DNA of 54,241 bases from a virus (IMGVR_UViG_3300021961_000134:1-54241), one strand, 5' to 3'. Shown: positions 2,680 to 29,812, counted from the stretch's first letter. Translations and numbers: made by a program. The notes: generated by a model from the sequence alone, not told the origin.

Positions 2680-2696
2680 TATATGCTCCTAGGTAT

Positions 2697-2712: not shown

Positions 2713-2735
2713 CATTACAATATTTGGTGGTAATC

Positions 2736-3320
2736 ATGTCAAAATTAAGTGAGCTCAGACTACACGCACGTAATAGAAAACTCCCAACAGCTGCATGTAT
2801 TGGCAGACTAGAACCACAATTCATATCCTATAACCTATTTATCTATGATAGTCTAAAGGGTGATCGTTCTAATTACACTGGGATGAAGACAGCAGAAGAG
2901 AGACACGAACATGCTGTAGCTGGTGTTAGTACTGGTGAAGATGTGTACAAGTTAGGTGATTTTTATAATCAAATTCACACATCTAAAATACAAATAAACG
3001 AAAATGATCTAAAAATTAAACTGCATAATACAAGATATGCAATTCTAGATTCTGGACATGATCTAGAATATCACATGGATCCACCAAACATATATAATAT
3101 TATAATTCCTTTATCAGATCCAATCACATTTAAGGCTCAAGTACCACATTTAAAGGGGGATGAGATTGATTGTGTTGATATAGAAATAGGTCAAATATAT
3201 TTTGTTAATCCTAGTTATATGCATATGACTAGCCATCTGTCCGATGAACCCAGAGTAGCTATCTTAGCTAACTTTAATTACAATGAGGAAATTTATGACA
3301 CCATTAGAGGGCTACTATGA
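2736..3320 (+). CDS. 2OG-Fe(II)/cupin oxygenase, aspartyl/asparaginyl beta-hydroxylase-like
   Basis: H-x-D (YHMD), a distal His (YMHMT) and a C-terminal PRVAIL strand. ATG at 2736 follows a GGTGG RBS. Confidence 0.65.
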   Translation: MSKLSELRLHARNRKLPTAACIGRLEPQFISYNLFIYDSLKGDRSNYTGMKTAEERHEHAVAGVSTGEDVYKLGDFYNQIHTSKIQINENDLKIKLHNTRYAILDSGHDLEYHMDPPNIYNIIIPLSDPITFKAQVPHLKGDEIDCVDIEIGQIYFVNPSYMHMTSHLSDEPRVAILANFNYNEEIYDTIRGLL

Positions 3321-8672: not shown

Positions 8673-9492
8673 TAATTAATCCTTCATCTTGTTGTCTTTT
8701 TGGTAATGTAAAATGGTGAATAATTTTTTCTTCACCTTTTAATTCACTGTCTCTATACCCCCTGATGAAGTTCCATTTAGGATCTATTTCCATGATCCTT
8801 ACATTATAATTTGTATAAAAATTTGTTCGCCAAAAGGCATACGTATCCCAAAACCACAGGGACTTCGGATGAGGGTATTTCCAATCCTTCTTACTCTCAA
8901 TTTGTTCTCTATAATTATCATACCAAGCATGGAGCATTTCAAGGACGTTTGGTTTATTCCTATAAAGGAACATACCACAGTGCCACATTAATCTATAGAC
9001 ACCGTTCTTTGCGTTTTCTTCCCAAGAGTGAACTGCATAAAGTGGTTTGCCATTTTTTTCATCACCACCTTCCCAGATCAACTCTTTGTCTTCTTGCTTA
9101 TAATGTCTCAGTTCTTTATCTTCTGTAAAATAAACTACCTTAGCATTATACGCTCTATTTATTGTCATAGACATATCGTGATCATCATCAATCTGATCAA
9201 AGATATATTTAATATCTTCTGATTCACAATAAGTATCTGCATCCATATAACAAGTTAAATCATATGGTGTTTGATCTAAAGCCCATAACTTAGCTCTACA
9301 ATGAACAGGAATATTAGTAATAATATTCTCAAAAATTAATGGGTCTCTTCTTTCATCTACCCACTCTTTGTGAGTAAACAAAGTTAACTTTGCTTCAGGC
9401 CAATAGTCCTTAATAGACATAGCTGACATAACAGCAGCATCATAATAAGGCTTTGTTAATGAAGCAACATAAACAAAACCATTATTGCTCAT
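8623..9492 (-). CDS. Putative glycosyltransferase (GT8-like)
   Basis: GFVYVAS...A..SA.SIK..WP, KLWALDQTPYDLTCYMDAD (DxD), WDTYAFW, KWNF and IIHH. Confidence 0.75.
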   Translation of the reverse strand: MSNNGFVYVASLTKPYYDAAVMSAMSIKDYWPEAKLTLFTHKEWVDERRDPLIFENIITNIPVHCRAKLWALDQTPYDLTCYMDADTYCESEDIKYIFDQIDDDHDMSMTINRAYNAKVVYFTEDKELRHYKQEDKELIWEGGDEKNGKPLYAVHSWEENAKNGVYRLMWHCGMFLYRNKPNVLEMLHAWYDNYREQIESKKDWKYPHPKSLWFWDTYAFWRTNFYTNYNVRIMEIDPKWNFIRGYRDSELKGEEKIIHHFTLPKRQQDEGLINDPNIRNSVGSFDVFK

Positions 9493-13200: not shown

Positions 13201-16200
13201 GTACGTACCTTCATATGCACCTTCCCAGTTCTTTGTGTAAGTTCCGACATAATCTTTTACCCAAGTATTATTAAATACACCAGTATATTGACCCGTGTAG
13301 TTACCAGCCCATGCTTTATTATAGAGAGTAGTATATGTCTTTTCCCACGTATTGGCAAAGTAACCAGTGTATACACCTGAGTAAACGCCAGTATAAGCGC
13401 CTTGATACAACTTAGCATACAGCTTTTCCCAGTTATGTGTATATACGCCAGTATAGTTACCTGAATAATCTCCAGCATATTCGTTCGCATAATTTTTAAT
13501 ATAGTTAGCTGTATAGTTACCGGTAAAGTATCCAGTATATGTTCCATCATAATAACCAGTATACACACCAGTATAATCACCAGAATATGCAGCTTGATAT
13601 GTCTTAACGTAATCCTTGTTCCAGATTCTTACCCAGTTCTTTGTATAATTGCCTGTATAGTAACCTGTATATACACCGGTGTAATCGCCAGCCCAGTTCT
13701 TAATATAGTTACCAGTGTAGAAATTTTGATAGTACCTTCCAAAGTAACCTGTGTATGTTCCATCATAATAACCAGTATACACACCAGTATAAGCACCAGC
13801 CCAAACCTTAGCATAGGTCTTTACATAGTTTGCTGCAAAGTAGCCTGTGTATGTACCAGTGTATACACCGGTGTAAGCACCAGCCCAAGCCTTCGCATAT
13901 GTTTTGTCGTAATTGTTACCAAAGTAACCTGTGTATGTACCAGTGTATACACCAGCCCAAGCCCTAGACCAAACCCTTACATAATCCTTGTTGTACGTGT
14001 TATTATATGTTCCAGTATAGTAACCAGTATATGCTCCAGAGAAGTTTCTTGCATAGTTGGCCCCGTAGTAGTTAGGATAGTATCTACCAAAATATCCTGT
14101 ATAGGTTCCCGTATAGTATCCAGTATAGGCACCGCTGTAAACACCAGCCCACGCTCTTACCCAAGCTCTTACATAGTTCTTACTATAGTTTCCTGTAAAA
14201 GTTTTAGCCCAAGCCCTTGAATAAATTTTAGCATAACTATTTGCAAAGGTCGTATTTCCACTAAAGAATCCTGTAAAATAACTAGTCCCTTGATAATAAT
14301 TTGGATTAAGGTATCCAGCATAGTAAATGTTACCGTAGTACATTGTTCTACCATAGTTACCAGAATAACTTCTTCGGTAATTTGGAGAGAGGAATCCACC
14401 GTAGTAAATATTACCGTAGTATAATGGACCTAGCCATGTCTTTGCCCAGTTTTTAGTATAGTTAGCAGTAAAGTATCCAGTGTATACACCTGTCCACACT
14501 CTGACATAATCTTTGTTGTATGTTCGGTTATAATATCCTGTATAAAATCCAGTATAATATCCAGTATAAGCTCCAGAATAGTTACCAGCCCAGTTCTTTA
14601 AATAATCCTTTTGCCATACCTTAGCAAAGTTGCCTGTATAGGTTCCAGTGTAGTATCCTGTGTAAACGCCTGTCCAAGCCTTTACATATCCCTTAACATA
14701 ATTCTTACTATAGTTACCGGTATAGTATCCAGTATATGCACCTGTATATGCACCAGCCCAAGCCTTAGCATAGGTCTTTACATAGTTAGCAGCATAATAC
14801 CCAGTATAGGTACCAGTGTATACACCGGTGTAAGCACCTTCCCATGCCTTAGCATATGTTTTGTTATAATTGTTACCATAGTATCCGGTATATACACCTT
14901 CATAGTTACCTACATACGTACCGGTATATGCACCAGCCCAGTTCTTTAAATAATCTTTTGTCCAAGTTTTTGCATAGGTGTTGGCAAAGTATCCTGTGTA
15001 AACACCGGTATAGTTACCCGCATATACGCCAGTGTATACATTATCATAAGAAGCATCGTACGATTTAACATAGTTTTTTGACCAGTTGTGTAAGAAAGTA
15101 CCAGTATACACACCAGTATAGTTACCTACATACGTACCGGTATATGCTCCTTCCCAAGCCTTTGACCAAACTCTGTTCCATATTCTAGCCCAAGAGTTTG
15201 CAAAATATCCTGTAAACGTACCTGTGTAAACACCAGTATAGGCACCTTGCCACAATCGCGACCAGTCTCTTCCCCAGTTTTTGGTATACACCCCAGTGTA
15301 GGTACCTTCATATGCTCCAGCATATGTTGTATCGTAATTCTTATTCCAGTCTTTAGAATAATCAGCTGAAAAGTATCCAGTAAACACACCAACGTAGTCA
15401 CCAGAATACGTTTTGTCGTAATTCTTTAGCCAATTTTTGGAATAGTTGTCAACATAATAACCTGTAAAAACTCCTGTATAATCACCGCTATAATCACCAA
15501 CATAAGTCTTTACGTAATCTTTGACCCATGTGTGAGCAAAGTATCCAGTATAGATACCTGAATATTCATTTGCATAAACTGCTTCATAATGCTTTTCGTA
15601 ATTTTTATCCCAGTTTTTCTGATAGACACCGGTGTATGTACCTGCGAAGTTACCTTCGTAGTTTGTTAGATAAGACTTGACATAGTCTTTGTTCCAAACC
15701 TTTTCCCAGTTTTGATTATAAACACCAACAAAATCACCAGTATAGTGTTTGGTATATGTCTTAACATAATCTTTATTCCAGTCCCTTGACCATTCCCCTT
15801 GATAAAGACCAGCGTATTCTTTGTTGTATGTACCAGTATAAGACTTTACATATGCATGCTCGTATGCAGCTTTATAAGTTGTAGTGTAGGTTCCCTCATA
15901 GGCGCCTTCGTATTCTTTATTGTATTGGCCAACATATAATCTGTTATAGATACCTTCGTAATGTGCTTCGTAAGCCTTATTATAATCGCCCGTGTAAGTA
16001 CCTTCGTAGTGTTTACTAAAGTCACCAGAATAATCCTTTACATAATCTTTGTTGTATTCACCGAGGTACGTTGTATCAAACGTACCTGTCCAAGCTCCAA
16101 TATAGTCCCCTTCATAAGTTCCGGACCACAGCTGAGAATAGGTTTTATTGTATATTGTTACATAATCTTTATTGTAATCGCCAATATACGTACCTTCATA

Positions 16201-19107
16201 ATCGCCTTGGTAGATACCAGCAAAAGCTCCAGTAAAGTCGCCTTCATAATTGCCCGCCCAAAGATGAGAATATGTTTTGTTGTATTCTGTGGTATATGTT
16301 TTAGTATAATCGCCTGCATATCTTCCAATGTAAGCCTTATCATATGACCCAATAAACAGACCTACGAAATCTCCCTCATAGTTACCTGCCCACAATGTTG
16401 AGTAAGTTTTTTCATAAGTTTTGGAATACGTCTTTACGAAATCACCTTCGTATGACCCTTCATAATCTTTTGCAAAATCACTGCTATATGTTGCTTCATA
16501 TGCTCTTAAATATGTACCAGTATAATCACCTACATATATTCCAGAGAAGTCACCAGTGAAGTCTCCTTCGTAGGTTCCAGCCCAAAGATGGGAATACGTT
16601 TTAATATAATCCTTAGAATATGTCTTATTGTAATCGCCTTCATATGTTCCTTCATAAGACTTGGAATATGAACCTTCATAGTGACCAAGATAAGTTTTTA
16701 TAAAACCGCCAATGTAATCCGTGTTGTAAGAAGTTCCATAACTTGCAGAAAAATGTCCTGTATAATTACCAGAAAAATCCCCACCATACAATTTATTGTA
16801 GTTATGCGAATAATCTTTTTGATATGCTGCTGCAAATTGACCGGTATATAATCCTATAAAATCTCCAGACCACGTACCTTCATATGTACCTTCAAAATCT
16901 TTTGCATATATTGTTGTCCAGGTTTTAACATATTCACCAGTGAAATCGCCTTCGTAATTTCCAGCCCAATCTGTAGAATAGGTCTTGTCATAATTTTTTG
17001 TATAGGTTTTTAAATATTCACCTGTGTAAAAACCAGAGAATTGACCAGTGTATTCACCTAAGAACTGGCCACTGTATTCCCTATTGTATATACCTAGCCA
17101 ATCTCGTGAAAATGTTTGACTATAGACACCTTCGAAATTCTGACTGTATATGCCCTCATAATTAGTTGAATAAACTTTGTTCCAATCTTTAGCAAACGCC
17201 CCAGCATATTGTACCTCTACTATTCTATTATATGTTTTATCATATGTTTTTTCGTAGTCTTTATTCCAGGATTTCTCATATGTTCCAACAAAATCTACTG
17301 GAGAAGAATAAACACCTAAGTATGTTTTAACATAATCTTTATTCCAGTCACCAACATACGTGCCTTCAAAAGCAACTGGACCAGCATACAATGTTGAATA
17401 TGTTTTAACATAGTCACCATCATAAGTTTTTTCATAATCGCCCTGGAATGTTACTGCTGATGTATATGTTGCTTCGTAATCACCAGCGTATAACGTATTG
17501 TATTCTTTAGCATAAAGTTGTGAATATTCTAATGGACCATGATAAGCTTCACCCCAATCCTTTGAAAATGAGCCTTCGTAAGTTGCTTCATATGCTTTAT
17601 CAAAAGAATGAACTGATGTGTATGTTTTAACATAATCATATTGATATTGAGTATTGTAATCTGTCTTGTATTCTCCTGCAAAGGTAACAGCAGAAGTATA
17701 TGTTTTTTCATAATCAGTATTATATGTAGCTTCCCAATTTCTTAAATAAGTTCCAACAAACTCTACTTGTCCGAGATATGTTTTAGTGAAGTTCTTTTCG
17801 TATGATGCACCATAATCTTTAACATAATCTCCAGTATATGATCCATCGTAGCCTACTTCACCTGCCCATTGTTTGTTGTATAAAGTAGTATAAGTTTTTT
17901 GATATAGGGTACTGTAATCTGCAGCATATCCTGTTGTTCCAACATAAATCGTACTCCATTCTTTGGCATACGATCCTGTGTATGTTGTTAAATAAATTTG
18001 TTCAAAGTTCACATCGCCCTGGTAGGTTTTAATATAATCAGCTGACCAAAGTTTAGCGTAATCCCCACCATAATGTTTTATATAATCTGTTTCTAAATTA
18101 TATGCTTTAATATAATCTTTATTGTAATCAGCACTATAGGTTTTTGTCCAATCGCCAGTATAGTATTGATCTAACACATATGTCTTTAAATAATCTTTAG
18201 AAAAATTACCTTCGTATGATTGATCATATGCTTTCAAGTAGTGCTGGTCAGTTCTAGAATATACAGTTTCATAATCAGTAGAATAAGATTCTAATGCAAG
18301 ATAGCTTTTACTCCAAATTCTATCGTATGTACCTGTGTATTGACCAATCCAGTTGGTAGTATAAGAGCCTTCGTATTCTTTAGTAAAAGATAAAGCATAA
18401 TCGTCTACATAATCTTTAGCCCATGTTTTACTATAAGTTGTAGCTCCAATATCTCTAACTGTACCTCTCGCTTCCCATGTACCAACGACAGGAGCAGATG
18501 CACCAATGAAATATTGACCTACACCGGTATCCACAATCCTCTGTCTAAGTCTTTCAGTAAAGAACGATTGTATTTGGGTATTAGTAAATTGTTTAAGCGT
18601 ATTGTCGTCTGATATTAATAGAGGATAAATTGCTGTTGCTGACGAAGAGTTGGATGTTCTTCTTCTTAAATAATAAGTAGTACCACCAGACTCGTTTATA
18701 GTATTGATAGTTGTATATAATGTGTTTGAACTATCACTGGTTAAAATATATGATCCTATACCATTAGACACCATGTTAGATATCATTGTGTCTACTAGGC
18801 TATTAAGAGTAGATGTATTAGCTTCTTCGATAGTAGTGTTAAAAACTACATAACCAGATACATCAGAAGTATTAGCAGTAGAAGATAAGTTCTGAGTTAG
18901 CGACGAATTAGTGCCACCAACATCTACTAGTATACCAGCATTTGATCCTAAATCTGTAGAAAAACTAATTGCACCAGCTAATGTATTATTAGATGCAAAA
19001 CTAGTTAAAGTTTGCTCAATAATATGATTCAATTCTATGGATGGCATTTCTTGCAATGCAATCCAACTTCCACCACCCGTTGTTTTAATTTTTAGTGGAT
19101 TGGCCAT
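10210..19107 (-). CDS. Giant Tyr-periodic repeat protein (2965 aa), putative fold-back virion fibre
   Basis: About 225 aa of non-repetitive N-terminus, then ~2730 aa with Y/F/W at every fourth position, and a short C-terminal SYTLWVRVA. An AAGGA RBS is upstream; it lies in the tail/fibre region. Confidence 0.85.
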   Translation of the reverse strand: MANPLKIKTTGGGSWIALQEMPSIELNHIIEQTLTSFASNNTLAGAISFSTDLGSNAGILVDVGGTNSSLTQNLSSTANTSDVSGYVVFNTTIEEANTSTLNSLVDTMISNMVSNGIGSYILTSDSSNTLYTTINTINESGGTTYYLRRRTSNSSSATAIYPLLISDDNTLKQFTNTQIQSFFTERLRQRIVDTGVGQYFIGASAPVVGTWEARGTVRDIGATTYSKTWAKDYVDDYALSFTKEYEGSYTTNWIGQYTGTYDRIWSKSYLALESYSTDYETVYSRTDQHYLKAYDQSYEGNFSKDYLKTYVLDQYYTGDWTKTYSADYNKDYIKAYNLETDYIKHYGGDYAKLWSADYIKTYQGDVNFEQIYLTTYTGSYAKEWSTIYVGTTGYAADYSTLYQKTYTTLYNKQWAGEVGYDGSYTGDYVKDYGASYEKNFTKTYLGQVEFVGTYLRNWEATYNTDYEKTYTSAVTFAGEYKTDYNTQYQYDYVKTYTSVHSFDKAYEATYEGSFSKDWGEAYHGPLEYSQLYAKEYNTLYAGDYEATYTSAVTFQGDYEKTYDGDYVKTYSTLYAGPVAFEGTYVGDWNKDYVKTYLGVYSSPVDFVGTYEKSWNKDYEKTYDKTYNRIVEVQYAGAFAKDWNKVYSTNYEGIYSQNFEGVYSQTFSRDWLGIYNREYSGQFLGEYTGQFSGFYTGEYLKTYTKNYDKTYSTDWAGNYEGDFTGEYVKTWTTIYAKDFEGTYEGTWSGDFIGLYTGQFAAAYQKDYSHNYNKLYGGDFSGNYTGHFSASYGTSYNTDYIGGFIKTYLGHYEGSYSKSYEGTYEGDYNKTYSKDYIKTYSHLWAGTYEGDFTGDFSGIYVGDYTGTYLRAYEATYSSDFAKDYEGSYEGDFVKTYSKTYEKTYSTLWAGNYEGDFVGLFIGSYDKAYIGRYAGDYTKTYTTEYNKTYSHLWAGNYEGDFTGAFAGIYQGDYEGTYIGDYNKDYVTIYNKTYSQLWSGTYEGDYIGAWTGTFDTTYLGEYNKDYVKDYSGDFSKHYEGTYTGDYNKAYEAHYEGIYNRLYVGQYNKEYEGAYEGTYTTTYKAAYEHAYVKSYTGTYNKEYAGLYQGEWSRDWNKDYVKTYTKHYTGDFVGVYNQNWEKVWNKDYVKSYLTNYEGNFAGTYTGVYQKNWDKNYEKHYEAVYANEYSGIYTGYFAHTWVKDYVKTYVGDYSGDYTGVFTGYYVDNYSKNWLKNYDKTYSGDYVGVFTGYFSADYSKDWNKNYDTTYAGAYEGTYTGVYTKNWGRDWSRLWQGAYTGVYTGTFTGYFANSWARIWNRVWSKAWEGAYTGTYVGNYTGVYTGTFLHNWSKNYVKSYDASYDNVYTGVYAGNYTGVYTGYFANTYAKTWTKDYLKNWAGAYTGTYVGNYEGVYTGYYGNNYNKTYAKAWEGAYTGVYTGTYTGYYAANYVKTYAKAWAGAYTGAYTGYYTGNYSKNYVKGYVKAWTGVYTGYYTGTYTGNFAKVWQKDYLKNWAGNYSGAYTGYYTGFYTGYYNRTYNKDYVRVWTGVYTGYFTANYTKNWAKTWLGPLYYGNIYYGGFLSPNYRRSYSGNYGRTMYYGNIYYAGYLNPNYYQGTSYFTGFFSGNTTFANSYAKIYSRAWAKTFTGNYSKNYVRAWVRAWAGVYSGAYTGYYTGTYTGYFGRYYPNYYGANYARNFSGAYTGYYTGTYNNTYNKDYVRVWSRAWAGVYTGTYTGYFGNNYDKTYAKAWAGAYTGVYTGTYTGYFAANYVKTYAKVWAGAYTGVYTGYYDGTYTGYFGRYYQNFYTGNYIKNWAGDYTGVYTGYYTGNYTKNWVRIWNKDYVKTYQAAYSGDYTGVYTGYYDGTYTGYFTGNYTANYIKNYANEYAGDYSGNYTGVYTHNWEKLYAKLYQGAYTGVYSGVYTGYFANTWEKTYTTLYNKAWAGNYTGQYTGVFNNTWVKDYVGTYTKNWEGAYEGTYTGVYTHNWNKNYLKNYDTTYEGTYEGSYDRLWTRLWAKDYVKTYVGDYSGNYTGIFNKNFERSWDKNYEKTYTTLYQGAYEGVYSSDFAKDYDKTYEKTYTALYANEYEGVYVKEYSGTYVKDYVEAYIKEYQGTYSGIYTKTYDGDYTKEYAGLYQKEWTKTYSQDWSGEYEKTYIGGFEKTYEKTYQGAYTKTYEGTYLALYQKMWEGTYEGDYVKAYTKNWVKTYSQDWSGIYIKEYEGSYDQTFSSLFEGTYEGDYVKAYSKDWNKVYVHEWSGTYTKTYLGNYESSFASLFEGTYEGDYNKDYIGDWNKTYSSNFLGLYQKSYSGQFNKDYVKQYDGTYVKEYEGTYSSQFSSLFEGTYQGEYLHAYDRGYEKTYSVDYTGSYDGDYTGEYIKEYLKTYEKSFTKEYGAAYTTIWSKDFEGTYVGHFQKEYAKEYQHTYNKLWSHDFAGVYTGEFSKLYAGTYEGDFAKNWTTTYQGTYSSLFEGTYVGDYIKSYETDYVKTYDRAWMGVYSQNFEGEYSGGFSKDYEGTYVGNYSGSFSGNYEGDFAGLYVGDWTKTYVASYESNFQKDYSGDYTGSYAKDYQAEYIAAYDKAWSGEVGYIGAYNKEYVATYSTDYSGQYVGDVNFERGWNKLYVGQYNKLYLGEYVSDVDYSKLWQGTYEGTWSKDYEATYEGYMDYSTGYEASYSANFAFDYIATYTSVHSFDKTYTKEYEKAWEKTYIGEYVSDVDFVKTYSKVWNKDYEKSYDGGYSSDQPFSKTYTGAFLKDWQKLYQQDWTGTYSSPVNFEAAYDKVWNKDYEKTWEKVYNKEFDYTKTYTTLVDHDFVKTYSKDYAGGVNFDKSYDKTWEKVYIGNWDKVYVGDTDYEKSYEATYAKNWTTVYQNSYQLDTNYVKEYNKVYSTNFVTDYIKTYTLDSGDFTKIWTKTYEGEYTYTKTYTTTYSGVFTGYFENTYVGVFNRGYDATYQKAYINTYAGSYGAGEEDSYTLWVRVA

Positions 19108-19116
19108 TAATATTCC

Positions 19117-22100
19117 TTACTGGTATTTGTATGTGGTATCGCCCAAGATGTTACCTTCATATATGAAGCTAACATTATTTATGTCGAACCCAACCACGGC
19201 TGCTCCAGGAAGTCCCCCATCACCGCAGTTATGGAATCTAGATTTTCTTCTAAATTCTTCGCCACCACCCATACCAACTTGGCCTAGGTTACCACCAACA
19301 CCACCAGGTAATCTCGTATTACCATAATCATAATTTGGCTGTCCTCTTAAACCGCCATTGATTAAAGTTCCGTTACGAGGCTCTACTTTAAGCTGAGCAC
19401 TTTCATATTTTGAACTTTTAGGTGAAATACCAACAGTCCACCCAGCACCACCTGACCCTGGTACACCTACTATGTCTGAAGTACCAAAGAATGATCTATT
19501 AATTTCTTGAAGATAGTTTGCACCTTCATATGTTCTTGCATATGATCCTACATATGCTTTAGAGTATGTCGCACCATAAATCTTTACATAACTTTTAGCA
19601 TAATCAGCAACAAACTCATTCGCATAAGAACCTGCATAAATGTGGGTCCATGCTTTAGTATATGTTGCAGAATAATTTGCATTTCCTAAGTAACTTGTTG
19701 AGAGATGGAAGACGCCAGTATATGGAGTTAAACCAGAATACAAAGTTTCATTAAGGTATGCACCACCATAGTAAATATTACCATAATAAGCAATTGCAGA
19801 ATAACTTCCTGTATACGTTCTAGTCCAATTACCACCAAATGCACCACCACCAAAGTATACTGGACCTAGATAACTAATACTACCCGACCATGTCTTATTG
19901 TACACTGCTGTATAACTTTTGCTATAATACCCTACAAACACATTAGCATACGACGCTTGCCAATTTTTACCATATGTTTTTGACCAATTTTTAGCATAGT
20001 CTTTACCATAAGTTTGATCAAAGTAAAGCGCGCTAGTTGCAGTATAGTAAGCTGTCCATGCATATGCATTTTCATATGTTACACTATACACAGCCTCGAC
20101 TGCATGATAAGATTCTGGAGTTGTTGAATATGTTGTTCCATAATCATCAGTCCAACCTAATGCACTAGTATATCCTACATATGTGGTTTGATATCCAGCA
20201 GCCCAAATTTTGTTATAATCAACATCTAATGCTGTTGAATATTCGCCAGTATAATTTGTAGATATATTATAATTAACTTCACTTCCGTAATTACCACCAT
20301 AAGGAGCAAATGTATCTGCAGATTCATAACCGTTATATAATAAAGAAGCTGCTCTTGAATATCCTTGAAGACCTTCGTACCCAACGATTCTTACTCTATT
20401 GTAATTTACTGAGTATGATTTATTATATCCTTTGAGATATTCTTTTGTATATGTTCCACTATATTCAGCAGTGAATGTAACATTATAAGATTTTGTATAG
20501 TTACCAACGTATTCAGCTATATACTCTCTTGCATATGTATCCTGATAATCTCCAGTAAAGGTTCTAGAATAAGAACCGGAATAATTTTTTGTATATTCCT
20601 TGTTGTAGGTTTTTGAGAAACTACCTTGATAGGATCCAACAAACGCTTTTGTATACTCCTTAGTAAAATCTCCAACATATGCAGCTGTATAATCTACGGA
20701 ATATTCAGCAACAAAATCCCCTGCATATGCGTTGTATGTTCTATCATAAGATTTACTGTAGGTTTTTTCAAATGTTTGTTGATATGTTGCTTCGTAAGAA
20801 CCTAGATATGTACCTTCAAAGGCTTGTGTATATAATTTATTATATTGTTTTACATATGTAGCATCGTAACTACCAATATAAGCCCCTACAAAATTGCTTT
20901 GATAATACCCTCCACCATATGCACTTGGTTCACTACTATAAGATTTCTGATAATGCCCTACATATGTAACATTATAAGAAACATTATATTCTTTGGTATA
21001 CAGACCTTCGAAGCTAGCAGAACTACCTACAGTAAGATAAGTTTTATTAAACTCACCTGAGTAAGCTCCAGCATATGCTCTTTCAAATGATCTCTCATAC
21101 TCTGTACCCATGTAATAAACTGTTCCACCATATACTGTTACGCCAGAATAAACTCCAGTAAATGATGTAGTATTGTAATCATTAGTATAACCCTTTGAGT
21201 AATTTGTACTAAAGGTTTTTATAAATTCATCGCTCACTCCAGCATAAATTGTACTTGAAACATATGTGTTGTATGATCCGCCATAATTTGCTGTATAACC
21301 TGGTACTGACGTATATGCGGTTACTGTTCCAACATAATTTCCACCGGACCAAGATCCAGTAAACGCTTGAGCTGGAGTATAAGCTCCAATATAGGCTTTA
21401 ACATATTCAGTCTTGGTATATGTATGCTCACCTACGTATGTTTCAACTACACCTGGATATGAACCAGCAATACCATCCCTTCCTTCAGCATAAGATGCTT
21501 GTCCAACATATCCACCTACATAATTCTTTACATAATCAACACCGTAGTTTGCACCACCACCACTATAACCTAGATACGATTGATAGTATAATAATCCGGA
21601 ATATTGTTTTGAATAAGGAACAATGAACTGGCCCCCAACAGCTTCAAAGCTAATAGCATATGTTCCAGTATATGTTTTGCTGTATGTTCCTGAATACGCT
21701 TTAGTATATCCTTTTTCATACGAGCCAGCATATGTTCCTATAAAACTGCGACTGTATCCACCAGTATAAGAACCTACATAAGTTTTTAAGTATGATCCTA
21801 GATACGTACCTAAAAATTCTCTGTTGTAGTATATCGTTCCTGTATAATGTTTTACGAAGTTACCAGTAAATATACCAGTATAGGTCTTTACATAATTTTG
21901 ATATCCCCCACCATAATAAACTTCTGTACCATAACTTAAAGCAAATGTTGTTGTGTTTAAGAACCCAGCTCCAGATGCATAATTACCAGTAAAATAAAGA
22001 GTTCTCGAATAATAATTAGGATTAAGATATCCTGAGTAGAAAACATTACCATAGTAAGCTACTGTTCCATAACCGGGGCCTACAAAGTTTCTTAGTGAGT

Positions 22101-25100
22101 TGTATCCGTTGAAATATTCAGGTGCTGATTGGTGATATGTAGTAATAGTGTTTCCGTAATATATTAAGCCAGTGTAGTTCGTTGCACTATAACTTGGACC
22201 GGAAGCGTATGATCTTGGACCTTGATACGTATTAGTATAAGTGCCTTCAAAATGTCCTACATAGGTTTTAGCATATTGAATTTGGCTTATATAACCACCA
22301 TAATAAAGTATACCAGCAAAGTTTCCTGTATAGGATCCAACATAAGATTTTAAATAATGTTTTACATAGTTACCATCATATACACCAGTATATGAACCAG
22401 CATAAGCACCAGTAAAGTTTCTTTCAAAATTATCAACATAGGTTTTATTAAACACGCCAGTATATGACTTTGCGAACCCAGCCCCAGAATAATAATTAGT
22501 AAATACATTTGTAGGAACGTATTCTGTAGCATCAGCTCCGCCCTGCCATACTCTACCAAGATACGTTGCTTGATAAACACCAGCTTGATCTGAATATGGA
22601 TCAGTAATACCAGAGGCACCACCACCTCCACCGCCACCACCTATTGTCCCATAGTTTTCTATGAATAGATGAACATCTGAACTTGAAGTTTTGATAGCAT
22701 CGCCACCGTTTGTACCAGAATATGACAAACCTCTTGGACCACCAATGTCGCCACCGTTACCACCTTTACCTACAATGTAACCACATGGATATGTGACAAC
22801 TCTTACAAGATGTTTTAGGTCTGCAGTTGTTGATCCAGACACGTTAGCTGTTACTGCCTGCATAGTGCTTAAATCAAGTGAGGAAGAAGTACTTCCATCT
22901 GATCCTAAAATAAATGTCTTGCTATGTTCTAATTGTTCACCTATAAAAATGTTAACCATCTGAAGGTTTTTATCTGGATCTTTACCTATTGAAAATAAAT
23001 AATCTCTGAGGTTAAAGTTGTTTATGTAGTATACAATCTTTCCGTCAATATAATCACTACCTCTTGAAGAACCTGCATTTTCAGAAATTAGTCGACCATT
23101 ACTATTAAATATGATGTCTGTATGATCATATCCAACATATGCGATTTTCCAATCGCCACCTTCTTTAACATTAATATATCTAACTTGTTTCCACGAATCC
23201 TCTTGTTGTACAAACATATTCTTTACAGATTGCCAACTACTGTCGTTCATAACAAACAACTTAGGATCAGAATTTTGAGTGTTTAATTGACCTGAAGAAG
23301 GACCTACGAAGCTAGTTGTTCCTCTGTAAACTTCTTGTCTTGTTAAATTACCGGTATAGTTTTTAACAAATTCAGTTTGACCTGTGTATGAAGGTTGGAA
23401 CGAACCCTGGAATTCAGACAAATATGTTTTAGTGTAATATAACAAGCCTTCATAGTTAGTAGATCCAGTATAATCCCCTACATATGCTGCGACAGGGGAA
23501 TATGAACCTAGCCAGTTTTTAAGGTAATCACTAGAATAAGCACCAATATAATTTTTATTGTATGATTTGTCGTAGTTCGTAGATGTAACTTTTGTATATG
23601 TACCAGTGTAGGCCTTTTGCCATATTTTAGTATATACACCTTCCCATGAATGCACATATGAAGCCGAATATGTACCTTCATATGTTTTAACGTATGAAGT
23701 GCCATCCCCTCTATATGCTTTAGCATATAACTTTTCAAAGGAACCCGTATATGATCTAGAATATATTTTGTTGTAAGCAACAAAGTTTTCTATTCTTTGT
23801 GTTGTATAATTTCTAGACCAAACTTTAGTATAAGCCTTGTCGTATGATTTACTATAAACTTTTTGATAGTATGCATAGCTTTCAGATATATATGATCTTG
23901 CATATAATTTGATATATTCACCTGCGTATTCTTTACGGTACCCACCTGTAAAATTACCGAGGTAAGTTCCATATGCAGGGCCCTCTAAATAATGTTTATT
24001 ATAATTTGTAGACCCAACATATGCTTTGACATATTCTTTATTAAAATCAGCTGAAGGTCTGTATGTCTTTTGCCAGTTCTTAGTATAATTAACTAAAGGT
24101 GAGAAGTATACATTAAATGTCTTTGTAAAGTTTGCTTGACCAGCAAAATAACCTGTAAATGTTTGTGCAAATCCACCATAAGTTTTTAGGAATCCATTGT
24201 ATTCCTTAATGTATCCACCAAAGTATGCATCGCCAGAATAAGCTTTTTCATAGCCTTTTATAAAGTTAGCTGAAGCGTTATAGTAACCGGTATAATAAAG
24301 AACCCCCTGATAATAATTTGGATTAAGGTATCCAGCATAGTAAATGTTACCATAGTAAGCTGCTGTTGCATACAGTTTGGCAAAATTTCTTAGGTATCCA
24401 GCAAAATATGCAGTACCAGAATATTCTTTGTTATATGCTCTAGAAAAATATCCAGTTCCAACAAATGAATGAGAATAATTTTTTAGGTACCCACCAAAAT
24501 ATGCAACACCCGTATAAGTTACAGAGTATTCTTTTGTGTATGATTTAAGGTAACCACTGTAGTATGGTAAACCTGAATAAGTTTTATTATAATCTTTAGC
24601 GTAGGTTTTAATATATCCAGCATAAAAAGCATCGCCCCTGTAAGATACATTATAAGTTTTATTATATTCAGCGAGTCGTACACCACCAAAATACGCATCC
24701 CCAAGATAAGCCCTAGACCAATATATTAGAGTGTAATTGGCTCCTGAATATCCACTAAAGAATAGAGGACCTATAAAGTCCTGATTGTAAACACCAGAGT
24801 AATATTTATTAAATACTCCAGTCCATATTCTACTGTATTCCTTAGTGTAACTTAATGTTCTAGAATAACCACCAAAGAAAAGAGGACCAGCATAATCTTT
24901 AGTATATGAGCCTACCCAAATCTTATTATATGTTGTAGACCAGTTTTTAGCATACTCTTTAGTATAGACGTTCTGATTAGACCACCCACCAAAGTATATG
25001 ACAGGACCGTGGAAAGATCTTGCATAATCAGGACCTGAAAAAGTACCAGACCATAGTCTTAAATATTCTTTGGAATAGTATCCTGATTCACTCGTGTACC

Positions 25101-28100
25101 CACTGTAGTACGTTAAGCCTCTATAAGCTCTATCAAACGTACCACTCCAAACTTTATTATATGCTTGATCAAATGTTCCTGTATACACTGCGTCATAATT
25201 TTTAGTAAATGTACCAGAATAATTTGTCGTTATGTCACCAACATATGTTGCTACATAGGTCTTTATATACGATCCTAAAAACGTTCTTGAATAAGCTGCC
25301 TGCCAGGATGACGTATATACAGAACCCCATTCTGATGTATAATATCTAATACCTGTCCAGTTTTTAGAATAATATGCAACTCCAGAATAGTTACCACCAA
25401 GTGCACCATAGTTTTTAATAAATTTAGCAAAAATGCCACTATAATTTTTGCTATATGTTTTTGTATAATCACCTACATATGTCTTTTCATAGTTCTTAAC
25501 ATAGTCTTTATTGTATTCACCAAGGTAATTTTTAGTATAAGTTTTTTCATATGAACCTTGGTATACTGCAGTGTATGCTTTTACATAATCAGCACCATAT
25601 TCTTTTACGTAATTCTTACTATATGCACCTTGATATGTTTTTGTATACGTCTTATTGTATACATTAGAATATACACCATCCCATGTTCTACTATATTGTT
25701 TTGTATATTCTTTATTGTACGCTCCTTCATATGATTTACTATATCCTGCAACAAATGTTTGAACATAATCCCCTTGATATGTGTGTGAATATATCCCTTG
25801 GAAAACTTGTTGATAAGTTTTTTCATATTCTCCTACCCATACTTTAGCGTAGGCTTTGTTGAATTCATTACCATAATCACCAGCATATATTGTAGTGTAT
25901 ACTGCACCGTATTCGCCAATATAAGTTTTATTATAATCTTTGACCCAAGCTGACTCGTATGTCTTTACCCAGTCTTTACTATAATATCCTGTTTGAGCTG
26001 CATATGCTTTAACATAAGTTGTAGTATAAGTTTTGTCGTAATTTTTAGTCCAGTTTCTATCATAATTTGCAGTATAAAATCCAGTAAAGGCACCTGAATA
26101 TGTCCCTGTAAACACACTACCAAACGAACCTTCCCAAACCCTATCATAATTTTTAGTCCAGTTTCTGGAATATGTTAAAGACTGAATATATCCTTGGTTG
26201 AAGTATCCTGTATAAACACCTGACCAAATTCTTTGATAATTCTTAGACCAAACCTTTGTATAAGATAGAGACTGAATATATCCTCGGTTGAAGTATCCTG
26301 TGAAAACTCCAGTGTAAGCACCTTGCCATATCTTGTTGTAATCTTTGTTGTAGGCAGTAGTACCAGCAAAGAAACCTTGGAAAGCTAAAGCAAACCCAGA
26401 AAAATATGCATTACCAGAATACGCTTTAGAATAATCTTTTAAAAATGATCCAGTGCCTGTGAAGAATCCAGTAAAATATTGTACTGATTGATAATAATTG
26501 GGATTAAGGTACCCCGAATAATAGATATTACCATAATAAGCTGTTCCAGCAAACGTCCTAGCATATGATCTGGAATACCCAGCATAGTATGCTATACCTG
26601 AATATTCTTTAGTATATTCGCCAGAAAAGTATCCGGTTCCAACATACCAACCAGAAAAATTTCGTTGATAGTTAGGAGATAGAAACCCACCGTAGTAAAT
26701 ATTACCATAATATAAAGGGCCTATATATGTTTTTGTATATGTTTTATTCCAATCATGTATGAACACACCAGTATATGTACCAGCATATGACTTTACCCAT
26801 GTTCTGATATATCCATTATAATTTGCATTACCTAGATATGATGTAGTCCAATCCCTAGAATAATCATTTGTGTATCCACCGGTGTAGTTTCCTGCCCAAG
26901 CTCTAACCCAAGTTCTAAGATATCCATTATAATTTGCATTACCAACATACGCTGCTTCATAATTAATATTATATGTTTTATTAAAAGAACCTACAAAAGA
27001 GTTTCCCCAATCGTGGGTAAAAGCACCAGTATATGTTCCTGACCACACCTTTGAATATGTAGCAGTATAAGTTGTACTGTATGTTTTGTTCCAGTCTTTT
27101 GTATACGTGTTTAAGTAGTCTGTTTCTGGTAACCCAACATATGTTCCAGAGTAGGCCTTTAAAAAGGTTCCATTATATGTTGTTAAATATGACTTAGTAT
27201 AATCACCAGCCCATACACGATCATAAGATTTGGTATACAATCCCTGGAATATTTGTGCATATGTTTTAGTATACACCGCATCATAACTTCCAGCATATAC
27301 TTTGTTGAAATCTCCAACATATTCACCGCTATAGTCTTTACTGTAAAATGCAATGTAGGTATGATCATAGTTTTTACTATACGTCTTTACGTATATACCA
27401 GCATAGTTAGTGGTGTATGTTTTGTTGTATTCTTTTTCATACGAACCGACCCAATCTTTATTGTAGGTCTTTTCATAGTTTTTACTGTATTCCCCAAGAT
27501 AAGTTTTGACATAATCTTTAGCCCACAACTTAGAATATGCAGTGTTGTAATCTTTAGAATATTCACCTAGATAATTTTTATGATATACTGATTCATATGA
27601 ACCTGTATATGTTGCAACATAATTTTTAAGATAAGTTTTACCATATTCCCCTTGATATAACTTTAAATAATTTTTAACATATGTGCCTTCATATATTAAA
27701 GCACCAAAAGAAGTTAGTCCGCTGTAATCACCTGTGTATTGAGTTGCACCACCCTCAAAGTTAATTATTGCAACATAACCTGCGGTACCAGCATAATCAG
27801 CAGTATATTGTGGGGCGCCATAATCTTGCAGACCTGAGTATGCTTCTGATATTTGATAATTAGCAGTATAGGTAACAACGCTAGTATAGTTCTTAGCATA
27901 TTCTTTATTGAATGCTAGCTCAGATACCCAAGCTGCTTGTCCTTCATAGGTTTTACTATAACCTACGTAACCACTATATTCTCCTAAAAACCCTTCTGAT
28001 ATTGTTACTATTCCAGAATATGAACCAATACCTACATATGCTCTAGAAAACTGGGTATACCCAGTATAATACTCACCAGAATAGCTTTGGTAGCTTATTG

Positions 28101-28848
28101 CCCCCCCATATGCTTTATTATACTGAACAGGTCCTCCAACATAATTTAAAAACGTATTATATACTGAAGTATAGGTACCTGTATATGTTGCTGGCGCATT
28201 ATATTCCTTTGAATACGCTCTTTGAAATTCACTTTCGTAATATCGTGTACCAAGATATGCTTTGTTATAGTAAACAATTCGATCAGCAGTACCAGTATAA
28301 TTTTTTGCATAGTCAACAAAACCGTTGAAACCTTCACCATAAGTTCTTATATATGTTTGAGCGCCTTCATACGTACCAGTGTATATTCCACCTCTATAAT
28401 ACGCAGGACCTATGTATGTTACTGGACGCGAGTAGTTAGTGACGTTCCCATATGTGCCTTGGTAAATAGCAAATTGGTTGGCATCTGCCCAAATACTATC
28501 AGGTTGATTTGCTGCTGAAGCATATTCTTTAGAATATTGAATAGTACCTGCATACACTGCTGCTGCTTCATAGGTTGCAGTATAGGTATCAACGTCTATG
28601 GAATTGTAGTTTTGGGTCGTTACATATGTTGCTGTGTAACCTACTGGACCGGATGCAAAGTTACCATGCCAGGAAAGGGTTGATGTTCTACGTACAGTAT
28701 AAACGCCTTGATACCCATTATAGAATCCGCTATAAGCATTTGTATATGACATAAGAGCATTATGAGTAGACTCTCTTAGATAAGAGACTTGTCTATCTCT
28801 ACTCTCTCCTGCGTATTCCGATGCGTAAATTCTAGAGGCGTAACTCAT
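19117..28848 (-). CDS. Giant Tyr-periodic repeat protein (3243 aa) containing a split gp38-like adhesin domain
   Basis: YxxxY periodicity, plus non-repeat segments YIVGKGGNGG...GTNGGDAI...IENYGTIGGGGGGGG (~22610-23280) and GGVGGNLGQVG...GGLPGAAVVG...EGNILG (C-terminus) that match T2/T6/S16-type gp38 glycine-rich motifs. Confidence 0.85.
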   Translation of the reverse strand: MSYASRIYASEYAGESRDRQVSYLRESTHNALMSYTNAYSGFYNGYQGVYTVRRTSTLSWHGNFASGPVGYTATYVTTQNYNSIDVDTYTATYEAAAVYAGTIQYSKEYASAANQPDSIWADANQFAIYQGTYGNVTNYSRPVTYIGPAYYRGGIYTGTYEGAQTYIRTYGEGFNGFVDYAKNYTGTADRIVYYNKAYLGTRYYESEFQRAYSKEYNAPATYTGTYTSVYNTFLNYVGGPVQYNKAYGGAISYQSYSGEYYTGYTQFSRAYVGIGSYSGIVTISEGFLGEYSGYVGYSKTYEGQAAWVSELAFNKEYAKNYTSVVTYTANYQISEAYSGLQDYGAPQYTADYAGTAGYVAIINFEGGATQYTGDYSGLTSFGALIYEGTYVKNYLKLYQGEYGKTYLKNYVATYTGSYESVYHKNYLGEYSKDYNTAYSKLWAKDYVKTYLGEYSKNYEKTYNKDWVGSYEKEYNKTYTTNYAGIYVKTYSKNYDHTYIAFYSKDYSGEYVGDFNKVYAGSYDAVYTKTYAQIFQGLYTKSYDRVWAGDYTKSYLTTYNGTFLKAYSGTYVGLPETDYLNTYTKDWNKTYSTTYTATYSKVWSGTYTGAFTHDWGNSFVGSFNKTYNINYEAAYVGNANYNGYLRTWVRAWAGNYTGGYTNDYSRDWTTSYLGNANYNGYIRTWVKSYAGTYTGVFIHDWNKTYTKTYIGPLYYGNIYYGGFLSPNYQRNFSGWYVGTGYFSGEYTKEYSGIAYYAGYSRSYARTFAGTAYYGNIYYSGYLNPNYYQSVQYFTGFFTGTGSFLKDYSKAYSGNAYFSGFALAFQGFFAGTTAYNKDYNKIWQGAYTGVFTGYFNRGYIQSLSYTKVWSKNYQRIWSGVYTGYFNQGYIQSLTYSRNWTKNYDRVWEGSFGSVFTGTYSGAFTGFYTANYDRNWTKNYDKTYTTTYVKAYAAQTGYYSKDWVKTYESAWVKDYNKTYIGEYGAVYTTIYAGDYGNEFNKAYAKVWVGEYEKTYQQVFQGIYSHTYQGDYVQTFVAGYSKSYEGAYNKEYTKQYSRTWDGVYSNVYNKTYTKTYQGAYSKNYVKEYGADYVKAYTAVYQGSYEKTYTKNYLGEYNKDYVKNYEKTYVGDYTKTYSKNYSGIFAKFIKNYGALGGNYSGVAYYSKNWTGIRYYTSEWGSVYTSSWQAAYSRTFLGSYIKTYVATYVGDITTNYSGTFTKNYDAVYTGTFDQAYNKVWSGTFDRAYRGLTYYSGYTSESGYYSKEYLRLWSGTFSGPDYARSFHGPVIYFGGWSNQNVYTKEYAKNWSTTYNKIWVGSYTKDYAGPLFFGGYSRTLSYTKEYSRIWTGVFNKYYSGVYNQDFIGPLFFSGYSGANYTLIYWSRAYLGDAYFGGVRLAEYNKTYNVSYRGDAFYAGYIKTYAKDYNKTYSGLPYYSGYLKSYTKEYSVTYTGVAYFGGYLKNYSHSFVGTGYFSRAYNKEYSGTAYFAGYLRNFAKLYATAAYYGNIYYAGYLNPNYYQGVLYYTGYYNASANFIKGYEKAYSGDAYFGGYIKEYNGFLKTYGGFAQTFTGYFAGQANFTKTFNVYFSPLVNYTKNWQKTYRPSADFNKEYVKAYVGSTNYNKHYLEGPAYGTYLGNFTGGYRKEYAGEYIKLYARSYISESYAYYQKVYSKSYDKAYTKVWSRNYTTQRIENFVAYNKIYSRSYTGSFEKLYAKAYRGDGTSYVKTYEGTYSASYVHSWEGVYTKIWQKAYTGTYTKVTSTNYDKSYNKNYIGAYSSDYLKNWLGSYSPVAAYVGDYTGSTNYEGLLYYTKTYLSEFQGSFQPSYTGQTEFVKNYTGNLTRQEVYRGTTSFVGPSSGQLNTQNSDPKLFVMNDSSWQSVKNMFVQQEDSWKQVRYINVKEGGDWKIAYVGYDHTDIIFNSNGRLISENAGSSRGSDYIDGKIVYYINNFNLRDYLFSIGKDPDKNLQMVNIFIGEQLEHSKTFILGSDGSTSSSLDLSTMQAVTANVSGSTTADLKHLVRVVTYPCGYIVGKGGNGGDIGGPRGLSYSGTNGGDAIKTSSSDVHLFIENYGTIGGGGGGGGASGITDPYSDQAGVYQATYLGRVWQGGADATEYVPTNVFTNYYSGAGFAKSYTGVFNKTYVDNFERNFTGAYAGSYTGVYDGNYVKHYLKSYVGSYTGNFAGILYYGGYISQIQYAKTYVGHFEGTYTNTYQGPRSYASGPSYSATNYTGLIYYGNTITTYHQSAPEYFNGYNSLRNFVGPGYGTVAYYGNVFYSGYLNPNYYSRTLYFTGNYASGAGFLNTTTFALSYGTEVYYGGGYQNYVKTYTGIFTGNFVKHYTGTIYYNREFLGTYLGSYLKTYVGSYTGGYSRSFIGTYAGSYEKGYTKAYSGTYSKTYTGTYAISFEAVGGQFIVPYSKQYSGLLYYQSYLGYSGGGANYGVDYVKNYVGGYVGQASYAEGRDGIAGSYPGVVETYVGEHTYTKTEYVKAYIGAYTPAQAFTGSWSGGNYVGTVTAYTSVPGYTANYGGSYNTYVSSTIYAGVSDEFIKTFSTNYSKGYTNDYNTTSFTGVYSGVTVYGGTVYYMGTEYERSFERAYAGAYSGEFNKTYLTVGSSASFEGLYTKEYNVSYNVTYVGHYQKSYSSEPSAYGGGYYQSNFVGAYIGSYDATYVKQYNKLYTQAFEGTYLGSYEATYQQTFEKTYSKSYDRTYNAYAGDFVAEYSVDYTAAYVGDFTKEYTKAFVGSYQGSFSKTYNKEYTKNYSGSYSRTFTGDYQDTYAREYIAEYVGNYTKSYNVTFTAEYSGTYTKEYLKGYNKSYSVNYNRVRIVGYEGLQGYSRAASLLYNGYESADTFAPYGGNYGSEVNYNISTNYTGEYSTALDVDYNKIWAAGYQTTYVGYTSALGWTDDYGTTYSTTPESYHAVEAVYSVTYENAYAWTAYYTATSALYFDQTYGKDYAKNWSKTYGKNWQASYANVFVGYYSKSYTAVYNKTWSGSISYLGPVYFGGGAFGGNWTRTYTGSYSAIAYYGNIYYGGAYLNETLYSGLTPYTGVFHLSTSYLGNANYSATYTKAWTHIYAGSYANEFVADYAKSYVKIYGATYSKAYVGSYARTYEGANYLQEINRSFFGTSDIVGVPGSGGAGWTVGISPKSSKYESAQLKVEPRNGTLINGGLRGQPNYDYGNTRLPGGVGGNLGQVGMGGGEEFRRKSRFHNCGDGGLPGAAVVGFDINNVSFIYEGNILGDTTYKYQ

Positions 28849-28860
28849 TCTTTATTCACC

Positions 28861-29154
28861 TCAGGAGTATACTTGGTACCAGATATCTCCATTTGCTCCA
28901 CCACTGGGAGCATCTGTGCTCACATAAACAACATATGAAGAAAGGTTATTTGAATCGCCACCGAAGTTAACTGAGGTCTTCTGAATCTCTGCTACACTTA
29001 TAGAATTAACTATACCTTTATCTGTAACATTAGCTGTTACAGCAAATGTTGTATTTCCAAACTCTCCAGTTGTAATACCAGTATCGGGAAGGGTACTTAT
29101 TTGTACGTTGGCTGAGCTATTAACAATCTCAACACCTGCGACTTTAAGAGCCAT
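28861..29154 (-). CDS. Short tail-fibre tip/adaptor protein
   Basis: GxFGxxT...VTDKGIV fibre motif and C-terminal VSTDAPSGGANGDIWYQ, a common phage fibre-tip motif. Confidence 0.65.
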   Translation of the reverse strand: MALKVAGVEIVNSSANVQISTLPDTGITTGEFGNTTFAVTANVTDKGIVNSISVAEIQKTSVNFGGDSNNLSSYVVYVSTDAPSGGANGDIWYQVYS

Positions 29155-29812
29155 TCGAGTCCTCCAGAACTTTTATTCTTTTTGAAAGATCTTTAATTGC
29201 CTCTAACAATAAAGGAATCAAAGATTGATATTTCACAGCCAAGTTTCCGTTTCCGTTTGTTTCAACAAGGAATGGAAGCATCTCCTGGACTTCCTGAGCA
29301 ATAACACCCAAATCAGTTTTACCGTCTTTTTGATCCCCTGTCTTCCACTCAAATATATATCCATTTAATTTTTCGAGGATGTCAACTGGATTCTCAATTA
29401 TTCTTATGTTATCTTTAAGGTTTCTATCTGAGGAATAATTAGCTTCAACGTCTCCTGTTGCAAACAAGTTACGTACATGAGTGTTACCAAATTGATAAGC
29501 TGCGGATCCTAAATCATATGAATTATTAGAAGTAGGAATTATATTAGAAGATAGTCCTAAAGATGTAGCTACTGATACAGTACCACCCCTAATAGCATCT
29601 ACAGCAGTAAATGTGTTAGCTGAAAATACACCTTCAACATGACCATTACCTGTTGTGGTAGTATGGTTAGTTGAGTTAGGCTGAGCGACAGCTCCTACTG
29701 TAACAATGATTGTACCAGCATCATAAACTAGCTGGTTAGTTCTAACTCTCCATTCGTCAAATGTATCAGTCGAAGCTATTACATTTGCGCCTAGGTATGT
29801 AGTTTTGGCCAT
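29144..29812 (-). CDS. Tail fibre protein with a C-terminal intramolecular chaperone (peptidase S74) domain
   Basis: Autocleavage motif YSSDRNLKDNI, followed by LNGYIFEWK, GVIAQEV and YQSLIPLLLEAIKDL. The N-terminal DTFDEWRVRTNQL motif is typical of T4-like fibre proteins. Confidence 0.85.
   Translation of the reverse strand: MAKTTYLGANVIASTDTFDEWRVRTNQLVYDAGTIIVTVGAVAQPNSTNHTTTTGNGHVEGVFSANTFTAVDAIRGGTVSVATSLGLSSNIIPTSNNSYDLGSAAYQFGNTHVRNLFATGDVEANYSSDRNLKDNIRIIENPVDILEKLNGYIFEWKTGDQKDGKTDLGVIAQEVQEMLPFLVETNGNGNLAVKYQSLIPLLLEAIKDLSKRIKVLEDSNGS

Follow-up and report, generated by a model that had tools for sequence, protein, structure and literature searches.

The C-terminal end of P0001, a 3243-amino-acid (aa) tail-fibre protein of a marine virus, very probably holds one adhesin domain of the gp38 type whose two halves refold together around an insertion of 1040 aa, a view that draws its support from structure predictions and homology. 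The protein is encoded in IMGVR_UViG_3300021961_000134:1-54241, a 54-kb viral contig of 32 % completeness by CheckV, which we analysed over its whole length of 54,241 nucleotides (nt) and refer to as the window. The gene is a single open frame on the minus strand (19117..28848, including the stop codon). Its N-terminal shaft (aa 1-1850; 23299..28848, minus strand) consists of degenerate [Y/F/W]-x-[K/G/R]-x tetrads, as judged by aromatic autocorrelation and tetrad composition. Further along, aa 1869-2084 (22597..23244, minus strand) comprise three W-K hairpin-type repeats, a linker and the gp38-like N-half with its GKGGNGG motif, recognized by a family hidden Markov model (HMM), by Pfam GP38 and by PHROG. 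The insertion (aa 2085-3124; 19477..22596, minus strand), made of the same tetrads as the shaft, lies between family-HMM positions 178 and 185, and the gp38-like C-half (aa 3125-3243; 19120..19476, minus strand), with the motifs GSGGAGW, GGVGGNLGQVG, GDGGLPGAAVVG and EGNILGD, is recognized by the family HMM and by phrog_11439. The original prediction for this stretch had proposed that a Tyr-rich repeat of about 1000 aa splits a gp38-like domain and that ~1850 aa of repeat precede it. The shaft is as long as was claimed and all of the Gly-rich motifs quoted are found in the P0001 frame; only the size of the insertion, given as ~1030 aa, shifts slightly, to the 1040 aa set by the family-HMM bounds.

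The split itself is read from two matches to one model. The family HMM, built from the last 300 aa of 12 unsplit homologues, aligns aa 1869-2084 with its positions 2-178 (116.5 bits) and aa 3125-3243 with its positions 185-297 (40.5 bits, independent E value 2.8e-14). These are consecutive pieces, and therefore 1040 aa stand where homologues have a loop of 13-31 aa, which bears out the proposed interruption. The 775-position tail-fibre profile phrog_11439 takes the N-half at 601-665 (E 9.6e-6) and the C-half at 672-742 (E 3.2e-4), with the two adjacent in the profile (665, 672). The N-half also matches phrog_2056 and reaches Pfam GP38 (PF05268) by itself (E 3.7e-8, 33.9 bits against a cut-off of 25, profile positions 51-118 of 218; 29.4 bits in a second scan); nine of the 10 homologues tested pass the same cut-off, with coverage extending up to profile positions 4-216 of 218. 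When the N-half was searched against 1.84 billion representative proteins, most of the 30 matches stopped 100-140 aa past the poly-G motif, that is, in an uninterrupted domain. Finally, hhalign of a 14-homologue profile against the T-even gp38 of phage fFiEco06 gave a probability of 96.3 % (E 1.8e-9, 220 columns, gp38 residues 37-264), with five Gly-rich gp38 motifs aligned in order, and both P0001 halves align to the family motifs. Sequence searches of the PDB with either half or with the family profile returned nothing meaningful, and neither the region nor either half, queried by megablast and tblastn, matched any of 50,697 phage records; the unsplit homologue P0009, run by tblastn against the same records, hit only 3, all in the W-K repeat part at ~31 % identity. 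By tblastn, the marine domain has no relative in any cultured phage of that collection. As a separate observation, the metagenomic protein P0032 (1127 aa) carries four tandem Pfam GP38 matches (98.6 bits), a chain of gp38-like domains and not a single tip domain.

The repeat that makes up both shaft and insertion can be followed by its aromatic residues. Tyr runs at 14-23 per 100 aa over aa 1-1800 and 2101-3100 and at 3-7 in the counting intervals that include Gly-rich segments; the aromatic autocorrelation at lag 4 is 2.69 for aa 1-1850 and 2.71 for aa 2086-3110; and successive aromatics are spaced exactly 4 residues apart in 277 of 459 cases in the shaft and 146 of 240 in the insertion. Position 0 of the tetrad is Y, F or W; of the in-phase tetrads, 71-76 % have K, G or R at position 2; and positions 1 and 3 are mostly T/S/N/V/D/E. 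Two segments of P0001 interrupt the pattern, aa ~1855-2084 and aa 3125-3243, both Gly-rich; VRVVTYPCGY (aa 2015, nt 22806) and poly-G (aa 2070-2077) lie in the first of these stretches, GSGGAGW (aa 3131) and EGNILG (aa 3231) in the second. The tetrad repeat has no match in Pfam, PHROGs, the PDB or the ESM Atlas: the shaft falls in no Pfam or PHROG family, the insertion in no PHROG family, and the ESM Atlas queried with the insertion gave a best score of 0.87, to unnamed clusters only. The repeat might form a monomeric beta-ribbon stabilized by Tyr stacked on Gly or Lys. A motif of ~30 residues around AYYGNIYY[SAG]GYLNPNYY breaks the tetrad phase at aa 713, 771 and 1498 in the shaft and at aa 2265 and 3021 in the insertion, and again at aa 1563 and 1590 of the neighbouring giant protein described below; it may mark turns or hinges.

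Insertion site and predicted fold

The hhalign alignment places the insertion after the poly-G motif of gp38 and before its next GGGG motif. Excerpts of PMC12032242 give this segment as the second of four hypervariable segments (HVS2, aa 166-179), and excerpts of PMC12892980 give the same segment in PP01 gp38 as loop-B (Q161-V170), located at the distal tip and required for adsorption; according to the latter, a swap of residues 158-170 abolishes infection. By alignment, then, the interrupted loop corresponds to HVS2 in T-even gp38 and to loop-B in the PP01 protein, and the earlier placement of the repeat at gp38's short hypervariable receptor-binding loop agrees with both sets of coordinates.

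Do the halves still make one domain? The N-half and C-half were modelled as separate chains, each with its alignment, in 3 runs alongside 3 controls. The docking score ipSAE was 0.81, 0.80 and 0.81, versus 0.00 in all 3 controls. Approximately 370 contacts joined the halves, the least-error pairs were all among the Gly-rich motifs, the partner predicted local distance difference test (pLDDT) did not fall below 71, and 89 % or more of the contacts were common to the runs. In calibration, the mark applied here was reached by 58 of 80 solved complexes and by 2 of 110 mismatched pairs, figures that are only roughly valid in this case because custom alignments were supplied.

A single-chain prediction was made for L009, the split homologue with the shortest insert, from domain start to stop (1102 aa, 18 aligned rows). 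Its pLDDT was 77-94 in residues 1-140 and 990-1102, and 21-60 in the insertion. Once low-confidence stretches had been trimmed, the model superposed on PP01 gp38 (9v85_A) with Z 20.1 and a root-mean-square deviation of 2.8 Å over 204 residues, the superposition spanning model residues 1 to 1102, and the next-best row had Z 3.8. For P0014, the unsplit relative closest to P0001, an AlphaFold2 model (pLDDT 69, predicted template modelling score 0.71) led to the same proteins: PP01 gp38 9v85_C (E 4.3e-8, template modelling score 0.51/0.54) and 9v85_A (E 9.3e-7), then S16 gp38 6f45_D (E 1.6e-4), with the remaining PDB rows at E>1. The failure of the halves to match or fold as a gp38 sandwich was thus looked for in two forms, and in both they came together (docking ipSAE 0.81; L009 Z 20.1), so that one gp38 fold for the two halves is supported by predictions and homology. 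A beta-helix plus three-layer polyglycine-II sandwich is predicted in the relatives L009 and P0014; for P0001 the prediction is of the docking of halves only. Within the insertion of L009 the low-confidence model draws beta strands of 19-40 residues and some hairpins, on which no conclusion rests, and the structural matches of this part (Z<=3.8) were read as generic long beta-hairpins.

Conservation across related loci

A profile scan of IMG/VR with an alignment query recovered 22 loci, whose open reading frames (ORFs) were then scanned with the family HMM; a scan of viral contigs with the single N-half as query had yielded 5 pattern matches, none confirmed. The domain is split in 12 of the 22 loci. 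Ten of these (L005, L006, L007, L009, L010, L011, L013, L014, L015 and L016) have both halves with a long insert between them, and in the other two (L008 and L012) the contig ends just past the N-junction; the unsplit forms are L003, L004 and L017-L024. The comparison of loop lengths in homologues that had been called for gives 13-31 aa in the unsplit forms against an insert of ~835-1580 aa in the other split loci, which is in frame and kept as protein-coding tetrad repeat in all of them. Measured from the end of poly-G to the C-terminal GDGGxPGAA-type motif, where the pattern matched, the distance is 929-1674 aa in split forms versus 88 and 106 aa in two unsplit loci. In L013 (4370-15601, plus strand), which has the longest insert and is without a second giant gene, the frame continues ~90 aa beyond the usual gp38-like C-terminus into Tyr-rich sequence.

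Both junctions are shared. The N-junction, …SGI[T/S]DPYS..AGV[Y/F]..T[Y/F].G…, is common to the window and 12 of the 22 loci, and the C-junction, …G[VT][APG]G[SG]GGAG[W/F], to the window and all 10 loci that reach the C-half, mostly as …SY.G.AE..GVAGSGGAG[W/F]. The ends of the insert are conserved over its first ~35 and last ~25 residues. Mean pairwise identity over eight split rows amounts to 0.73 at the N-junction, compared with 0.44-0.67 for the C-half and 0.26-0.46 for the insert interior. Both halves contain Gly residues that do not vary over 18 rows, and the split lineages show invariant Gly, Pro and Ala positions as well. The genes that flank the fibre gene come in the same order whether or not the locus is split. 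The split arrangement has been kept in at least 8 diverged lineages of marine T4-like phages.

A maximum-likelihood tree was computed from the 175 aa before the end of poly-G, with 21 rows after removal of the exact duplicates L012 and L015. All 11 split rows fall on one side of a branch with support 84/84, the unsplit giants L003 and L004 are their sister, and the split rows plus L003/L004 are set apart from the short unsplit forms by 99/98 support. Given this tree, and given that the gp38 of T-even phages is unsplit, one derived event is the simplest account of the insertion, and we regard a single, derived origin as likely. A recent duplication was considered as the source of the insert and rejected: protein similarity to the shaft or to the neighbouring giant protein is 27-30 % and driven by the repeat, and there is no long DNA match.

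Favoured reading and its rivals

The explanation that we favour overall, and hold somewhat likelier to be right than wrong, combines a split adhesin tip, an arm that extends the receptor surface, and a single origin. On this account the C-terminal end of P0001 would be one gp38-type adhesin domain (beta-helix plus polyglycine-II sandwich), fused covalently to the 1850-aa shaft and interrupted once, in HVS2/loop-B, by 1040 aa of shaft-type tetrads. If the halves refold, the insertion must start and finish at a single point on the distal side of the domain, the side that faces the receptor, where it would form a long hairpin-like arm or a closed loop; with one insertion per chain there would be one arm or loop per chain. 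Such an arm might serve as a flexible Tyr/Lys/Gly-rich extra fibre that widens the surface or the reach of receptor recognition, making the first, probably multivalent and weak, contacts with the host envelope, and the binding of a specific receptor may still fall to the short loops that the sandwich retains. The insertion would have arisen once in the ancestor of the clade and have been retained since then with conserved junctions and a variable interior. That the arm takes part in host contact is a tentative proposal, to which we give somewhat less than an even chance, and the picture of tentacle-like arms in the original prediction is likewise tentative. A bolder version, which we think rather unlikely, is a covalently branched fibre, with the polyglycine-II sandwich as the branch node of a new class of phage fibre carrying the tetrad repeat: the shaft would enter, the node form, a second fibre of ~1000 residues leave and return, and the last 120 residues close the node. 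If true, this would be a new way to enlarge the capture radius of a virus hunting sparse, small marine cells.

A number of points weigh against the favoured explanation. The original prediction had seen gp38 likeness in both halves, of which the N-half passes Pfam GP38; the C-half alone is without a Pfam match (E<=1) or a PDB sequence match, and its assignment rests on the family HMM, phrog_11439 and the fold predictions. When the junction region (aa 2010-2130) was searched against a set of 5.8 billion proteins, among proteins of near length only, none of 4400 candidates had E<=1e-5, and a search of genome contigs for a host or relative gave 38 pattern matches of which 0 were confirmed. The success of the docking may partly reflect likeness to the solved gp38 structures (6F45, 9V85); the alignments in both predictions include unsplit homologues, which favours the approach of the halves; and the single-chain fold is that of a stand-in, since L009 has 58 % identity to P0001 in the N-half region. 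Foldseek with the whole 1102-aa L009 model gave nothing at E<=0.001, only beta-barrel and pore proteins at E>0.1, and with this result and the low pLDDT of the insertion (21-60) the model establishes neither an arm nor a loop. As for the single origin, the branch that unites the split forms has support of only 84/84, below the star threshold of the tool.

Under two of the rival explanations the insertion would be absent from the mature protein. In one, an assembler joined repeats and produced a chimera, a natural concern for a repetitive protein on an incomplete metagenomic contig, but we give it practically no weight and take the insertion to be real. Twelve further IMG/VR contigs have the domain split in this way, and at the DNA level the repeats are degenerate, with the best match elsewhere in the window being 93 nt at 78 %, no long DNA repeat, no array inside the insertion according to Tandem Repeats Finder, and a G+C content (0.34-0.355) like that of the surroundings. 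Of the words sampled from 19000-23400, 97-99 % are present in four public runs, which belong to four studies; single Logan contigs of X1 and X2 span this stretch and both junctions, X3 and X4 tile it, and X4 contigs bridge the C-junction, differing at 4 bases and by no indel. X4 is the sole run not flagged as a possible source; the other three may be the source sample. (One X1 contig has a joint, 20468 -> 22381, that was examined as a deletion variant and rejected, with sides of only 21 letters and 163 other letters between them; it was taken as a look-alike repeat from another organism.) In the second rival, an intron, an intein or translational bypass takes the insertion out and leaves an ordinary gp38-like tip. 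Mobile-element insertions into phage structural genes are known, and the strong conservation of the junctions would fit, but the insert is in frame and remains a coding tetrad repeat in every split locus, it belongs to no PHROG family, and an Rfam scan of 18500-29500 found no family, intron or other, at gathering score. Nor do the P0001 junctions, …SGITDPYS… and …GVPGSGGAGW, resemble the intein pattern of Cys/Ser/Thr … His-Asn. Removal thus strikes us as highly improbable.

The other two rivals accept the insertion in the mature protein and dispute the adhesin. The domain could have been destroyed, leaving a decayed relic of Gly-rich segments that no longer co-fold in what is now only a long repeat fibre; the lack of Pfam and PDB matches for the C-half alone, and of any Pfam match for the whole P0001 sequence, would fit. 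Such a relic is improbable given that the halves persist in 8 diverged split lineages at 0.5-0.73 pair identity, above that of the insertion, with invariant Gly, Pro and Ala positions in both, with both junctions conserved, and with predictions that have them co-fold. Alternatively, the gp38-like sandwich may act as a structural clasp, a knot or folding nucleus that closes the 1040-aa loop as a branch or hinge node, with receptor binding left to another component, such as the neighbouring 2965-aa tetrad-repeat protein or other fibres. Several observations are in keeping with this: insertion and shaft are of the same repeat type, a second giant tetrad-repeat gene follows directly, its N-terminal domain of 230 aa being conserved in 15 of the 22 loci, the other short loops could be obstructed by 1040 aa inserted at the binding face, and the interior of the insertion is conserved no better than generic repeat. 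Against it stand the facts that in every characterized relative (PMC12032242 and PMC12892980, in excerpt) the domain is a receptor binder and the interrupted loop a binding loop, that the unsplit homologues terminate with the domain as adhesin tips do, and that no computed result assigns binding to another protein. We consider the clasp unlikely, though far from negligible.

Known relatives and gene neighbourhood

With gp38 of the T2-type Straboviridae (PF05268; S16 6F45, PP01 9V85) the P0001 domain shares the order of Gly-rich motifs, the predicted fold and the receptor loop, at an identity to T-even gp38 of only ~24 %. The differences are those of attachment and scale. T-even gp38 is, in excerpts of PMC12032242, a separate monomer of ~260 aa docked non-covalently on the tip of gp37, whereas the P0001 domain is the C-terminus of a 3243-aa chain; gp38 residues 1-36, the ~36 at the N-terminus, fall outside the hhalign match, and P0001 is not a small separate gp37-attaching protein. 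The same source puts the HVS segments of T-even gp38 at 14-37 alignment positions, compared with 1040 aa for the HVS2 equivalent of P0001. Closer relatives are the unsplit marine homologues (L003, L004, L017-L024; P0006-P0028), uncharacterized metagenomic proteins of 780-2593 aa that share the shaft repeat, the W-K repeats, the domain and the gene neighbourhood, and have 13-31 aa between poly-G and the next Gly motif. In phrog_11439 and in BFVD (13 matches at E<=0.001) the gp38-like domain ends a longer fibre protein; examples are Q58MW9 of Prochlorococcus phage P-SSM2 (1147 aa) and a 756-aa tail fibre protein of an uncultured phage, and none of the listed BFVD entries exceeds 1147 aa. Fusion of a gp38-like fold to a longer fibre is thus already known, and it is the thousand-residue loop insertion that sets the P0001 domain apart. 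Literature searches at the level of titles and abstracts turned up no large gp38 insertion and no Tyr-tetrad fibre repeat.

The gp38 adhesins are the standard example of how a handful of short loops, carried by a stiff Gly-rich scaffold, determine host range, and they are also a favoured chassis for phage retargeting. If the predictions are right, a binding loop on that scaffold can take up 800-1600 inserted residues, which would set a much higher upper bound on what a polyglycine-II sandwich can display. The Tyr tetrad is itself an undescribed fibre repeat, present here at several thousand residues per genome. The split clade gives a tangible starting point for studying the first contact between phages and hosts that are dilute in the ocean.

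The source of P0001 is an uncultured marine T4-like myovirus. Around the gene lies a T4-like baseplate and fibre module whose PHROG matches are baseplate wedge and hub proteins, and the gp6-like protein of the window has ~36 % identity to those of Caulobacter phage Cr30, Sinorhizobium phiM12-type phages, pelagimyophages and Methylophilales phage Melnitz.

Directly after the fibre gene, beginning 10 nt past it, comes the second giant gene (10210-19107, minus strand), encoding 2965 aa. It is a purer repeat than P0001, with 87 % of residues 231-2940 within in-phase [Y/W/F]-x-[G/K]-x tetrads, and the family HMM finds no gp38-like domain in it. Its 230-aa N-terminal domain is without a Pfam family and has 29-45 % identity in the loci where it occurs. 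A homologue of this gene is missing in L011, L013 and L016 although the downstream genes are present. Farther downstream of the fibre genes, a 289-aa ORF (8623-9492, minus strand) has a sub-threshold match to glycosyltransferase family 2 (18.2 bits versus a cut-off of 23.3); among the related loci that extend this far its identity is mostly 52-72 %, with 35-38 % in L018 and L024.

Upstream, between a gp8-like baseplate gene and the fibre genes, a 2159-aa DUF4815 protein (180 bits) is encoded at 30025-36504 (minus strand). In pelagiphage Mosig the gene at this place is annotated as a putative VrlC protein, and no tetrad-repeat fibre genes come after it. The last of the neighbours is a 222-aa ORF upstream of the fibre gene (29144-29812, minus strand) with a Peptidase_S74 'chaperone of endosialidase' domain (55.5 bits), and it matches many tail-fibre PHROGs at their C-terminal ends. 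Where the fibres are short and unsplit, the homologous part forms the end of a protein of 1032-1404 aa; in the loci with giant fibres it stands as an ORF of 223-231 aa.

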